From assembly GCA_963724515.1 (NCBI GenBank), contig CAVRUU010000003.1, positions 315,319 to 379,318 on the forward strand: a stretch of DNA of 64,000 nt, written 5' to 3'. This document shows, piece after piece, positions 50,075-52,992 of the stretch. The DNA comes from Candidatus Eiseniibacteriota bacterium. Lineage in GTDB: Bacteria > Eisenbacteria > RBG-16-71-46 > SZUA-252. The stretch's first letter is position 1, and each line of letters starts with the position of its first letter. The notes under the pieces were generated by a model. That model worked only from the letters and a program-made list of their open reading frames with translations. It was not told the DNA's origin and ran no database searches. Both the position numbers and the translations under genes were made by a program.

Positions 50075-50145
50075 CGATGCTCCCCGCGTTGTTGAATGGA
50101 AAGAGGATACGGATGCCATCTGGAGACCGGCTTTTCCTTCACCGG

Positions 50146-50176
50146 CTATCGGCTCCTGGAGGAAACATCTGGAGGG
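50146..50176 (-). promoter_or_regulatory. Putative sigma28-type promoter of pilB
   Basis: CCCTCCAG-N15-GCCGATAG. Confidence 0.6.
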
Positions 50177-50195
50177 CAATTGGGCGACGCGGTTG

Positions 50196-51209
50196 TCAGC
50201 GGATCGGGAGCCTCGGCTTCTGACCCGCTTCATCCGGAGCGGGCTCCGGAACCTGGGTGATCTCCGGCACGGCATCCGAGCCCTGAGCGAGGAGCGTGAC
50301 CTCGGCGCGGAAGAAGAACATCGAGCCCCCGGCCGCCGCGATCGGAGGTTCCTCGACCAGGCGCGGGGTCGCGCGGACCGGGGCTGCGGTCGAGTCGAAG
50401 GCCGCGCCGGTCGCCGACGAATCCCCCGGGATCACCGTTGCCTCCGCCTCGGTGGTGTCGGCCGGCGCGGGCGGGCGGACCGCTACCCGCTCCGTGGAAA
50501 CCTCGATGACCGAGCGCGCGTATCCGGTGACCGGGACCGCGGCACTGCGCCACAACGTGTTGGTCATCACGGCACGGTTCACGTAGGTCGTATCGTCCCC
50601 CTGCCAGTCCTGCTTCCCGTACCGGCGCGTCCGCTCGACCGTGCACGGGACGGGGGCCCGGCCGATGCGGAGGGTGTCGGGCGCCAGCGTGTCGGTGGTC
50701 GCGGTGCCTCCGAATTCGATCAAGTCCATCGCGGAGATGTCGTCATCGGCCATCGGGGCTCCTTCCTCCCCGACCGGGTATTCCAACAGCCTCCCGTCGA
50801 TCATGAGCCGCTGGTAGCGGGCGAGCGCGAGGCGCTGTGGCGCGCGTCCCCCCGAATTGCGAGGCGCCGGCCCGCGGGCCGCCGGAGCGAAGAAGCCGCG
50901 CTCGACTCGTGTCTTGGCGCTCTCCGCCGTCCGGAGCTCCAGCCAGACACCGGACTCCGACCCCGAGCCATCGCGCGAGACGACCGCCAGACGCTGCGTG
51001 ACGCGGCGCGGTTGCCGGTTCTTGAACGCGACGTTCACCTGATAGGAGACCCAGCTGCCCGGCTTGACGTCCGCGGGCACCGATAGCGATACCAGCTTCA
51101 GGCTCTGCGCCCGAGCGCTGCCGCTGAAGACCAGGAGGAAGGACAGGATGGAAAGAGCTGCGGTGGCCGAGGCCGGCGCCCGCCCGCGGCTACTGATGCC
51201 AGTGCACAA
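50196..51209 (-). CDS. Hypothetical exported protein
   Basis: 337-aa ORF with a signal-like LSILSFLLVFSGSARA; overlaps the end of the cytochrome gene; start uncertain. Confidence 0.65.
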   Translation of the reverse strand: MCTGISSRGRAPASATAALSILSFLLVFSGSARAQSLKLVSLSVPADVKPGSWVSYQVNVAFKNRQPRRVTQRLAVVSRDGSGSESGVWLELRTAESAKTRVERGFFAPAARGPAPRNSGGRAPQRLALARYQRLMIDGRLLEYPVGEEGAPMADDDISAMDLIEFGGTATTDTLAPDTLRIGRAPVPCTVERTRRYGKQDWQGDDTTYVNRAVMTNTLWRSAAVPVTGYARSVIEVSTERVAVRPPAPADTTEAEATVIPGDSSATGAAFDSTAAPVRATPRLVEEPPIAAAGGSMFFFRAEVTLLAQGSDAVPEITQVPEPAPDEAGQKPRLPIR

Positions 51210-52539
51210 TATGCTTCAGAGCCTCTTCATAGTCGAAGTTCGGGTTCTGCTCGTTCGTGTGACAGGTCAGGCACACGTCAGGACCCACAACGGCCTTGGT
51301 ATCTTCGGCCTCCGGATGCTTCGTACCCATGCCGTGGCAGTTCTCGCACTGGACATTTACCAGATCCGGGGATGCCTGCTTGGTCGCGAACCCGCCGGGC
51401 TGCCCGTAGCCGACGACGTGGCAGGGCAGGCACTCGGGGCTCGAGTCGCGCTGGTTCTTCGTCAGGGTCGCGAACGCGCGCGCGTGCTGCTGGCTGGAGT
51501 ACATCTGGTACTCGGCCTCGTGGCAGCGGCGGCAGTTCTTCTCGCCGAGGAAGTGGTCCCCGGTGAGGGGCGTGGCGGTCGCCTGCGCGGCGGCCGGGTC
51601 CTCGCTCGGAGCTTGGGCGAAGCGCCGGTTCATCTCGTCGTTGAAGTCGTCGACCGTGCGGTTCATCTCATCGTCCGCCGGTACCTTGTCGTCCAGCGTC
51701 ACGACTTCCCCGTCGTAGGAGACGATCTTGCCGTCCTCGTAGACCAGGTGGATGCCGGGGATGTACTGCCCGCGCTCGCCGGGACGCGCGTTGATCACGC
51801 CGTTGGTCTTCGTGATCTCCCGGAAGAGACCGGGCTGGTGCCCGAACACCATGACATCGATTCCGGGCGCATCGAGCGTCAGCCGCTGCCCCTCCGTCAG
51901 GCCGAGGTGCGACAGGAGCACGACGATGTCGGCCTTCTTGCGCAGCTCGGGCAGGAGCGCCTTCGCGGTGGCGACAGGATCCTTGATCTCGAGCGCGCGC
52001 TCGCTCGAGAGGGTGCGGACCTTCATATCCTTCCCGATGAGCCCGAAGAATGCCACGCGCGCGCCGCACAGCCTCCTGATGACGTAGGACTTGACGAAGG
52101 GCTTCTTGGTATCCGCGTACACGAGATTCGCCGAGACCACGTCGATCTTCGACTTCTTGAAGGTGTCGAGGAGGAATTGCTGGCCGAAGTTGAATTCGCG
52201 CTCGCCCAGCGTCACGACGTCGTAGCCGAGCTTGTCCATGGCCTGGACCATGAACGCGCTCTTCAGGGAGTCCTGCGTCCCGGCCATGCCGAAGAAGTCA
52301 CCCGCATCCACCCGGAAGTGGTTGGGGAACTTGAGGGCGCCTACCTTGAACTGACTCGCCCTCCGGGCGAGTCCGCCTAGCGGGTGAGCGTGTCAGCCAC
52401 AGGGAGCGAGCTCGCCGTACACATCCGTCGTGGCCTGGAACAGGATGTCGCAGGGCGTGCCCTTTCCCAGAAGCTGCGGGCTCAGGGCTGTAAGCCCCGT
52501 CGCGACAAGAAGAAAGAGCAGGGCGCGAAACCGGGTCAG
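51190..52539 (-). CDS. UshA-like (5'-nucleotidase/metallophosphoesterase-fold) selenoprotein with a CGU motif, fused to a tetraheme c554-like domain
   Basis: ORFs 52393-52596 and 51190-52311 are in frame and separated only by TGA 52393-52395: ...TTDVYGELAPCG-U-HAHPLGGLARRAS...VDAGD. Four CxxCH motifs (CRRCH, CLPCH, CENCH, CLTCH) and a signal peptide. Probable CTG start at 52539 after GGAGGT. Confidence 0.88.
52353..52373 (-). promoter_or_regulatory. Putative bacterial SECIS element
   Basis: Perfect hairpin GACUCGCCC-GGA-GGGCGAGUC beginning 19 nt after the UGA, with a G-rich apical loop. Confidence 0.75.
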
Positions 52540-52582
52540 TTTGTATTCACCTCCGTTCTGGTTCAGATGGGAGCACTCGAAA

Positions 52583-52612
52583 ACTATACCCCGCAAAAGC
52601 CGGCCGGTTCAA
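52583..52612 (-). promoter_or_regulatory. Putative sigma70 promoter of the selenoprotein-cytochrome gene
   Basis: TTGAAC-N18-TATAGT. Confidence 0.5.
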
Positions 52613-52645
52613 GCCTCTGGCGGCGCGCCCGCCCGAAACGCGGAA

Positions 52646-52673
52646 GGAGCGGGTAGGCGATCCTACCCGCTCC
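52646..52673 (-). terminator. Hairpin terminator after HU
   Basis: GGAGCGGGTAGG-ATCG-CCTACCCGCTCC (12-bp stem) with a weak U tail. Confidence 0.65.
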
Positions 52674-52701
52674 CTCGCAAAGCCGATGGTGGAGAATGCC
52701 G

Positions 52702-52992
52702 CTACTTCTTGATGCGATCCTTGAGTGCCTTTCCCGCATGGAACGCCGGGAAGCGGGATGCCGCGATCTTGATGCGTTCTCCGGTCTGGGGATTGCGACC
52801 CTCGCGCGCCTTGCGCTTGCGGGTCTCGAAGGTTCCGAATCCCGTGATCTGAACCTTCTTCCCGGACATGAGAGCTGCCGCGATCAATCCTTCCTTGCCT
52901 GGGGAGAAAAGCGTTTCGACGGCGGCGCGCGCTTCACGTGCCGAAAGACCGGTCTTCCTTGCTACGGTGGCGATGAGTTCGGTCTTGTTCAT
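52702..52992 (-). CDS. hup: DNA-binding protein HU
   Basis: MNKTELI, GFGTF, RKAREGRNPQTGE and PAFHAGKALKD. Confidence 0.97.
   Translation of the reverse strand: MNKTELIATVARKTGLSAREARAAVETLFSPGKEGLIAAALMSGKKVQITGFGTFETRKRKAREGRNPQTGERIKIAASRFPAFHAGKALKDRIKK

Follow-up and report, generated by a model that had tools for sequence, protein, structure and literature searches.

A heme-fused UshA-like selenoprotein of Candidatus Eiseniibacteriota, probably a periplasmic redox enzyme rather than a nucleotidase

Introduction

UshA-like proteins that carry a CxU motif (U, selenocysteine [Sec]) have been tabulated as a selenoprotein family since 2008, when a survey of the Global Ocean Sampling (GOS) selenoproteome entered "COG0737, UshA-like, CxU" and gave for it 76 Sec sequences from 20 samples, along with 92 cysteine (Cys) homologues (Zhang and Gladyshev 2008; PMC2398784). 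In the passages of that survey that name the family, it is counted with the handful of major selenoprotein families that have no Cys-based redox motif (PMC2398784). Review tables carry it as "UshA-like protein, COG0737, CxU" (2022; PMC9312934) and as "UshA-like protein, NF041198, CxU" (2026; PMC13188914). In the passages that name the family, and in full-text searches beyond them, no mention was found of a heme domain, of a loss of catalytic residues or of a function. Here, we describe a member of this family encoded on the minus strand of a 64,000-nucleotide stretch of Candidatus Eiseniibacteriota DNA (contig CAVRUU010000003.1, positions 315,319 to 379,318; hereafter the window), in which a degenerate UshA-type fold with a Cys-Gly-Sec motif is joined to a tetraheme cytochrome domain.

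The curated model of the family, NF041198, is titled "UshA-like (seleno)protein" (UshA_like_PCGU). The window protein has in common with it the PCG-U/C motif, the UshA-like N-domain, a match in the C-terminal multiheme part and the existence of both Sec and Cys forms. It differs in exceeding the curated cut-off only narrowly (286 bits versus 275, E 5e-85, with Cys replacing Sec) and in having no counterpart to model positions 263-345, and its orthologues use a CTG start and retain a His after Sec.

Two groups of metallophosphatase-fold enzymes are the closest described relatives of the N-domain. UshA, CpdB and YfkN share its fold, the order of motifs I to V, a GGxARR helix after motif I and a long linker helix. 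In the window protein, however, other residues stand in for the motif I His, the Asn-His of motif III and the second motif V His, a Cys-Gly-Sec insert follows motif I, and a tetraheme cytochrome occupies the place of the nucleotide-binding C-domain. SoxB, the dimanganese thiosulfohydrolase of periplasmic sulfur oxidation, acts on sulfur compounds and belongs to the same superfamily. It resembles the window protein in its periplasmic setting and, distantly, in sequence, but the window protein reaches 68.1 bits against a cut-off of 550 for the SoxB model TIGR04486 and is without the SoxB metal ligand set and the SoxB C-terminal domain.

For the cytochrome part, the nearest described protein is cytochrome c554 of Nitrosomonas (PDB 1bvb, 1ft5). 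Both have four hemes, and homology covers heme motifs one to three along with the intervening His, but cytochrome c554 is a free electron carrier of 211 residues whereas the version in the window is a fused C-terminal domain of ~125 residues. A functional parallel, with no homology, is found in MccSep (GSU2937/2936, ExtKL), described as a periplasmic multiheme selenoenzyme that reduces polysulfide (Sci Adv 2026; PMC13510729). Like the window protein, MccSep is a c-type multiheme selenoprotein assigned to the periplasm, is split at its UGA by gene callers, draws its Sec from a non-heme domain and has Sec and Cys forms across bacteria. It differs in having five hemes, compared to four heme motifs in the window protein, and in its Sec, which stands in a DGUP loop within an Ig-like domain, apart from the Cys that ligates heme; its function is proven, while the role proposed here is a prediction.

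We propose, with a probability of roughly 0.6, that the window protein is a periplasmic redox enzyme and not a nucleotidase, and that its hemes link a Cys/Sec centre to the respiratory chain.

Results and discussion

A single gene with an in-frame UGA

Under genetic code table 11 the locus is covered by two minus-strand open reading frames (ORFs), one of 67 aa at 52393..52596 and one of 373 aa at 51190..52311. If the lone in-frame TGA (52395..52393) is read through, they become a single minus-strand frame, 52539..51190, of 449 sense codons followed by TAG, in which the TGA is codon 49. Its local context is ELAPCG-U-HAHPLGGLARRA, with APCGUHAH at residues 45-52. A first-pass annotation of the window, made from its letters alone, had proposed that the two ORFs are one gene joined at this TGA and that the upstream piece brings the signal peptide and motif I. 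The read-through frame agrees on both counts: the upstream piece provides a signal-peptide-like N-terminus and the motif I position. The features that define the gene are as follows.

51190..52539, minus strand: complete coding sequence, from a CTG start through 449 codons, one of them UGA (Sec), to the TAG stop at 51192..51190
52468..52539, minus strand: signal-peptide-like N-terminus, residues 1 to ~24, two Arg followed by a 14-residue hydrophobic core
52399..52401, minus strand: codon of Cys47 (TGT) in the Cys-Gly-Sec motif, Cys in all 29 full-length rows
52393..52395, minus strand: in-frame UGA, predicted from homologue comparison to be read as selenocysteine 49

Comparison with homologues argues that this UGA encodes Sec. 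In a sample of 201 genomes of the phylum (a tally that includes one unpublished genome, G015, which gives 2 rows of the hand count below and from which no locus or sequence was drawn), 198 had a match to NF041198 at E ≤ 1e-20. A hand count of the N-terminal-domain matches listed gave ~85 with exactly one in-frame TGA and ~18 with none; it covers those listed matches only, and 679 further matches fall outside it. When 30 phylum loci were fetched, 27 read PCG-TGA and three read PCG-TGT or PCG-TGC, with the protein conserved on both sides of the codon. A hand tally of 80 loci from many phyla found TGA in 38, a Cys codon in 36 and no motif in one; the five that stayed unresolved were contig ends or had no heme segment. 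Cys-Gly-Sec or Cys-Gly-Cys was thus present in 74 of the 75 loci readable at the motif position, a set that was not selected for the motif. The remaining locus, from Latescibacteria (L094), has the family architecture and, at the aligned place, the sequence ILEAGKPGSLSRR without Cys-Gly-Cys/Sec.

The genome also encodes the machinery for Sec incorporation. Matches to selA (568 bits), selB (375 bits) and selD (368 bits) were all above their cut-offs, and a tRNA-Sec with anticodon TCA scored 68.7 bits. This tRNA gene lies ~100 nt downstream of selD on the same strand (contig C6:104116-105240), and selA and selB are on other contigs. Across the phylum sample, selA was above the cut-off in 179/201 genomes, the 201 again including G015. 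A global reassignment of TGA was considered and rejected, as TGA terminates 14 of the 29 long open frames in the window.

Gene callers treat the codon as a stop: the public record of the window protein (P0002) is a 365-aa fragment, and almost all of the best 120 database matches are 350-386 aa long. If the TGA were a genuine stop, the locus would comprise two genes or a decaying gene, that is, a 48-residue peptide and a cytoplasmic 373-aa remnant. We consider this very improbable. A TGA at the same codon occurs in dozens of independent assemblies with protein conservation on either side, the remaining homologues use Cys codons at that position, the hairpin described below has undergone compensatory changes, and the full Sec machinery is in the genome. 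In addition, the 373-aa ORF by itself has four CxxCH motifs of the c-type and no signal peptide. Covalent attachment of c-type heme occurs outside the cytoplasm. For this reason, the downstream ORF could not stand alone, and the window protein as a whole would, from established knowledge of c-type heme attachment, be exported. Taken as a whole, these comparisons indicate that the product of the window gene is very likely a selenoprotein.

A SECIS-like hairpin downstream of the UGA

The first-pass annotation had also pointed to a hairpin behind the TGA, built in part from uncommon codons. Both observations hold, and the structure resembles a selenocysteine insertion sequence (SECIS).

52353..52373, minus strand: SECIS-like hairpin GACTCGCCC-GGA-GGGCGAGTC, a perfect 9-bp stem with a GGA loop, 19 nt after the UGA

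It spans the codons CGG AGG GCG AGT. Both AGG and AGT are rare, at 6.1% of the Arg codons and 3.7% of the Ser codons, respectively, counted over the window's 29 long open frames. The structure is conserved in TGA forms. In an alignment of 28 sequences, the stem pairs in 94.2% of cells, a figure that drops to 22-52% once the 3' partner is shifted by 1-3 columns, and the observed covariation score was matched by 0 of 500 shuffles. One stem pair alternates between CG (15 rows) and GC (12 rows). The two columns concerned fall on the third positions of two codons, one for Leu (CTC/CTG) and one for Ala (GCG/GCC); because these changes are synonymous, the swap is not due to the conserved GGLARRA peptide. 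In the three Cys forms of the phylum set the hairpin is not formed. Across all loci, the longest stem within 60 nt was, at the median, 7 bp for 66 distinct Sec-form sequences versus 5 bp for 38 Cys forms (Mann-Whitney p = 3.6e-7), a comparison weakened by the fact that the sequences are related and differ in GC content (0.67 versus 0.60).

Other statistics also speak against the hairpin. Its folding energy is unremarkable for a GC-rich sequence (z = -0.88), and perfect 9-bp hairpins are not rare: the window's 64 kb contain 13, about twice the mean of 6.15 obtained from 20 Markov simulations. An Rfam scan of 52200..52650 at E up to 10 gave no match. Since the folding energy alone is not significant and such hairpins are not rare, the case for a SECIS rests on position, covariation and the contrast between Sec and Cys forms; the weak statistics reduce the hairpin as a stand-alone argument and do not reduce the comparative evidence. 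Considering homologues, machinery and hairpin jointly, it is strongly supported that the UGA at 52395..52393 would be read as Sec by SelA, SelB, SelD and tRNA-Sec, directed by the hairpin 19 nt downstream.

A metallophosphatase fold joined to a tetraheme domain

The protein divides into an N-domain and a C-domain connected by a linker helix. The two domains and the four heme motifs map to the window as follows.

51604..52461, minus strand: UshA/CpdB-type metallophosphatase-fold domain, residues 27-312, ending in linker helix 290-309
51193..51567, minus strand: tetraheme domain resembling cytochrome c554, residues 325-449 (61.6 bits to PF13435, whose cut-off is 20.8)
51520..51534, minus strand: heme-binding motif 1, CRRCH, residues 336-340, invariant in 84/84 rows of an alignment selected for at least four CxxCH
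51418..51432, minus strand: heme-binding motif 2, CLPCH, residues 370-374, conserved at ≥85% in the cross-phylum alignment
51334..51348, minus strand: heme-binding motif 3, CENCH, residues 398-402, conserved at ≥85% in the cross-phylum alignment
51259..51273, minus strand: heme-binding motif 4, CLTCH, residues 423-427, conserved at ≥85% in the cross-phylum alignment

A profile of the N-domain built from 65 relatives matched PDB entries 3jyf (1.3e-35) and 3gve (YfkN; 6.3e-34); 5eqv and 5'-nucleotidases were also matched, more weakly, as was SoxB (PDB 4uwq; 3.5e-14). Entries 3jyf and 5eqv are N-terminal metallophosphatase domains of 2',3'-cyclic-nucleotide phosphodiesterase/3'-nucleotidases. In an AlphaFold2 model of the window protein the mean predicted local distance difference test score (pLDDT) was 82.6, with most of the N-domain above 90, and the signal-peptide region was modeled as a low-confidence helix (residues 3-17). 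Foldseek matched the model to the N-domains and linker helix of 5'-nucleotidases at E ~2e-21. The tetraheme domain follows the linker helix and stands where UshA has its nucleotide-binding cap domain; a Pfam search at E up to 1 gave no match to the 5'-nucleotidase C-terminal nucleotide-binding domain. The C-domain matched the structure of cytochrome c554 (1bvb) at 9.8e-11, and over its first three heme motifs it is a true homologue of the Nitrosomonas protein. The first-pass description of a degenerate UshA-type fold fused to a c554-like module with four CxxCH motifs (starting at residues 336, 370, 398 and 423) is therefore confirmed by the PDB, Foldseek and PF13435 matches.

The fusion is not peculiar to this genome. 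Positions 29-262 of NF041198 match the N-domain, and positions 346-519 match residues ~271-438, which comprise the linker and the four CxxCH motifs (133 bits), with model positions 263-345 unmatched; in the genome search, these two stretches summed to 278.5 bits. Because model positions 346-519 match the heme region, the heme fusion is already included in the curated family model. As for heme maturation, which the first-pass annotation had suggested looking for, three cytochrome c assembly genes (PF01578) are present in the genome, and ResB (PF05140) was not found in this 69% complete assembly. Further multiheme proteins, in this genome and elsewhere in the phylum, contain the c554-like heme module too, and open frames of 940-1500 aa are among them; within the genome it was seen at C3:701219-701482 (L006, 10 CxxCH), C3:705995-706240 and C9:105188-105883.

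A rebuilt active site

With the roles of the metal ligands in UshA as background, the N-domain was aligned to 3jyf and to YfkN (3gve). In this alignment the motifs of the phosphoesterase read DVY for DxH, GERE for GNHE and GHQP for GHxH, which bears out the eroded motifs that had been read from the letters of the window. PCGU falls, in the alignment to 3jyf, within the loop that leads from motif I to the conserved GGxARR helix, and P-C-G-U/C-H is invariant in 29/29 full-length rows of the phylum. The motif I His is found in 0/29 of these rows and is replaced by Y, F, K, R, N, Q or I. In motif III the Asn is Glu or Asp in 65/65 rows and the adjoining catalytic His is found in 0/65, and the second His of motif V is likewise found in 0/65.

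A cross-phylum alignment of 84 members was assembled from rows selected for CG[U/C], GG..R and at least four CxxCH, so that the invariance of the motif within it is partly by construction. Its columns conserved at ≥85% are P46, C47, G48, U/C49, G55, G56, R59, the four CxxCH motifs, three further His residues (H352, H408 and H446) and some structural Gly, Asp and Asn positions; none of the former metal ligands reaches that level. These alignments indicate that the catalytic residues of the phosphoesterase are lost family-wide and that the active site has been rebuilt, not just eroded.

One way in which it could have been rebuilt is as a remodeled metal enzyme. Here, one or two metal ions would be bound by the surviving D39, D81, E113, H211 and H234 in combination with Cys47, Sec49 and His50, giving either a SoxB-like hydrolase or lyase or a metal-centred oxidoreductase in which Sec is a metal ligand and the hemes serve as a wire. 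The persistence of D81 (56/62), H211 (59/65), H234 (62/65) and the Glu or Asp in place of the Asn ligand (65/65) in the clade is consistent with such a site, as are the His50 that follows Sec in 29/29 phylum rows and the distant similarity to SoxB (4uwq and 68 bits to TIGR04486). However, these ligands are not family-wide: one clade of the phylum, with both Sec and Cys members, has D81 changed to G, W or A, H211 to Q and H234 to R in 3 rows, none of the ligands is at 85% across phyla, and outside the phylum the position of His50 has P, S, K, T, A and others. The SoxB score is also far under its cut-off. We regard a remodeled metal enzyme as improbable.

Proposed function of the Cys-Gly-Sec centre

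Our preferred reading is a redox enzyme built on a former phosphoesterase. The UshA/CpdB-type fold, devoid of the phosphoesterase residues, has Cys47-Gly-Sec49 in the loop that follows motif I, which should put it next to the former active site, and this Cys-Gly-Sec centre would be the catalytic group acting on a small substrate. Through the four hemes, electrons would pass between the Cys/Sec centre and a partner in respiration. The most likely class of substrate would be sulfur or selenium compounds.

Several points weigh against this proposal. The proximity of a heme to the Cys-Sec loop is plausible, because the tetraheme domain takes the place of the UshA cap domain after the same linker helix, and is drawn from UshA domain topology only. 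The C-terminal domain of UshA closes over the dimetal site. Confidence of the structural model is moderate in the cytochrome domain (pLDDT ~60-79) and below 50 in the linker at residues 313-324. In addition, the former metal ligands are mostly kept in the clade (D39 in 27/29 rows, along with the D81, H211 and H234 counts given above), and E113 stands at the former Asn ligand position, where all 65 rows have Glu or Asp. Because these five old metal ligands persist, a repurposed metal site that includes Cys/Sec and a metal-free Cys/Sec redox pair cannot be told apart by alignment in this clade. Nor does the gene neighborhood name a substrate: when ORFs were clustered in 80 loci and the recurrent ones searched against Pfam, no neighbor gene was conserved from phylum to phylum. 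What did recur was synteny within Eisenbacteria, a sigma-70 factor at 7 loci (the informatively titled ones from Planctomycetota) and a DsbA-like protein. Finally, where they name the family, the three papers cited for it (PMC2398784, PMC9312934, PMC13188914) give table entries only.

The DsbA-like gene, of thioredoxin fold, lies directly downstream of Cys forms in 4/80 loci (L092, L098, L118 and L122, from metagenome-assembled genomes [MAGs] of Deltaproteobacteria and Nitrospirae). It is at most a faint hint of thiol redox chemistry.

The distribution of His residues in the cytochrome domain raises a different possibility, namely, selenium-sulfur catalysis centred on a heme. Cytochrome c554 has one five-coordinate heme. 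In the 84-row alignment, drawn from many phyla, exactly three non-motif His residues (H352, H408 and H446) are conserved for the four CxxCH hemes, and there is no conserved Met or Lys column in the cytochrome domain. Cys47 (or Sec49) might supply the distal ligand to the one c554-type heme for which no His partner is conserved, and the neighboring Sec would attack polysulfide or another sulfur or selenium substrate at the heme, with the old pocket as scaffold only. The motif Cys and the Sec/Cys are the only potential heme ligands of the N-domain conserved at ≥85%, in rows selected for the motif, and the tetraheme domain sits at the site of the cap domain that covers the active site in UshA. 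A precedent comes from MccSep, in which one heme is ligated by His and Cys and the essential Sec comes from a non-heme domain (PMC13510729). Against this, the family is not homologous to MccSep: NF040886 was not among the NCBIfam matches at E up to 1, and no MccSep chain was among the PDB matches. The invariance of the motif is also partly a product of how the 84 rows were selected. Moreover, given the five-coordinate heme of cytochrome c554 itself, a missing His needs no ligand from outside. We therefore treat catalysis at the heme as a tentative and rather unlikely alternative to the redox enzyme with separate Cys/Sec centre and electron-carrying hemes proposed above.

Start site, expression signals and neighboring genes

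The signals upstream of the selenoprotein gene and the genes on either side of it are listed below.

52583..52612, minus strand: promoter-like TTGAAC and TATAGT with an 18-nt spacer, the sole such site in 50100..52750 (shuffles average 0.3)
52547..52554, minus strand: Shine-Dalgarno-like GGAGGTGA, 7 nt before the CTG start
52537..52539, minus strand: CTG start codon, non-canonical, layout shared with relatives
50196..51209, minus strand: downstream ORF of 337 aa, secreted-type, overlapping the selenoprotein stop codon
52702..52992, minus strand: gene for an HU-type DNA-binding protein, upstream of the selenoprotein gene

The CTG at 52539 is most likely the start of the gene, because GGAGGTGA lies 7 nt upstream of it and relatives have the same layout. 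In the 14 same-family loci printed, the aligned start position is CTG in 10/14 and GTG in 1/14, and in 8 same-family loci an in-frame TGA within the Shine-Dalgarno sequence leaves no room for a canonical start farther upstream. A TTG at 52596 was rejected as the start, being upstream of the conserved -10-like TATAGT, which is also found upstream of relatives' genes.

At the end of the upstream HU gene there is a GC-rich hairpin of 11-12 bp (52647..52672). Given this terminal hairpin and the promoter-like site, transcription of the selenoprotein gene appears to start from a promoter of its own. HU is found upstream of the selenoprotein gene in 17 fetched phylum loci, distant clades included, an adjacency that looks like synteny by descent and not like a functional link. 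On the other side, the 337-aa ORF has a signal-peptide-like N-terminus, matched no Pfam family and has counterparts, 36-60% identical, immediately behind the selenoprotein gene in 13 same-family loci; co-transcription of the two, as operon partners, is possible. The neighbors in the window comprise the HU protein, LptD, an ATPase of the type II secretion system/type IV pilus (T2SS/T4P) kind and the secreted protein without a family.

Distribution and significance of the family

The closest database relatives of the window protein are 81-82% identical and come from sources named Candidatus Eisenbacteria. The family is also found in MAGs labeled Acidobacteriota, Myxococcales (Myxococcota), Nitrospirota, Latescibacterota, Planctomycetota, Gemmatimonadetes and Gammaproteobacteria. 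Gene callers have cut almost all of the best 120 relatives at the Sec codon, so that they cover only ~75-82% of the query. In the databases the relatives are named "multiheme c-type cytochrome", "cytochrome c554/c'-like protein" or "2',3'-cyclic-nucleotide 2'-phosphodiesterase". Tandem paralogues, two or three in number, occur in other genomes of the phylum (L036, L044, L056, G123:C419, G150:C370, G198:C7 and G049:C106); Sec and Cys are often mixed among them, and some copies have no heme domain.

The first-pass annotation had called the protein a hidden selenoprotein. This is correct insofar as ordinary gene callers miss it, leaving only the 365-aa record; it is incorrect insofar as the family has a curated model and has been tabulated as CxU since 2008. 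The window gene is thus an unannotated member of an already catalogued family, not a new kind. What the present analysis contributes are the family-wide loss of catalytic residues, the replacement of the cap domain, the three non-motif His residues for four hemes and the near-universality of the family in the phylum. In practical terms, read-through combined with the NF041198 model would correct the truncated records now titled "multiheme cytochrome".

In a wider setting, the family constitutes a large and phylogenetically wide group of periplasmic heme selenoproteins. With MccSep recently proven to be the polysulfide reductase that had been missing from sulfur respiration (PMC13510729), an analogous test of this family is timely. 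A Cys-form homologue is present in Aestuariirhabdus sp. LZHN29 (L086), apparently a cultured isolate, as its record has no MAG label, and genetics would be possible there. It is conceivable, if doubtful, that the family is a second, independently evolved "selenium-sulfur on heme" enzyme in which a dead phosphoesterase fold has become the lid of a heme site. If true, heme-centred catalysis would define a widespread periplasmic activity, respiratory or detoxifying, in 198/201 genomes of the phylum and in other phyla. For Eisenbacteria themselves, a near-universal family alongside near-universal Sec machinery suggests that these proteins may be a main reason why the phylum retains selenocysteine.

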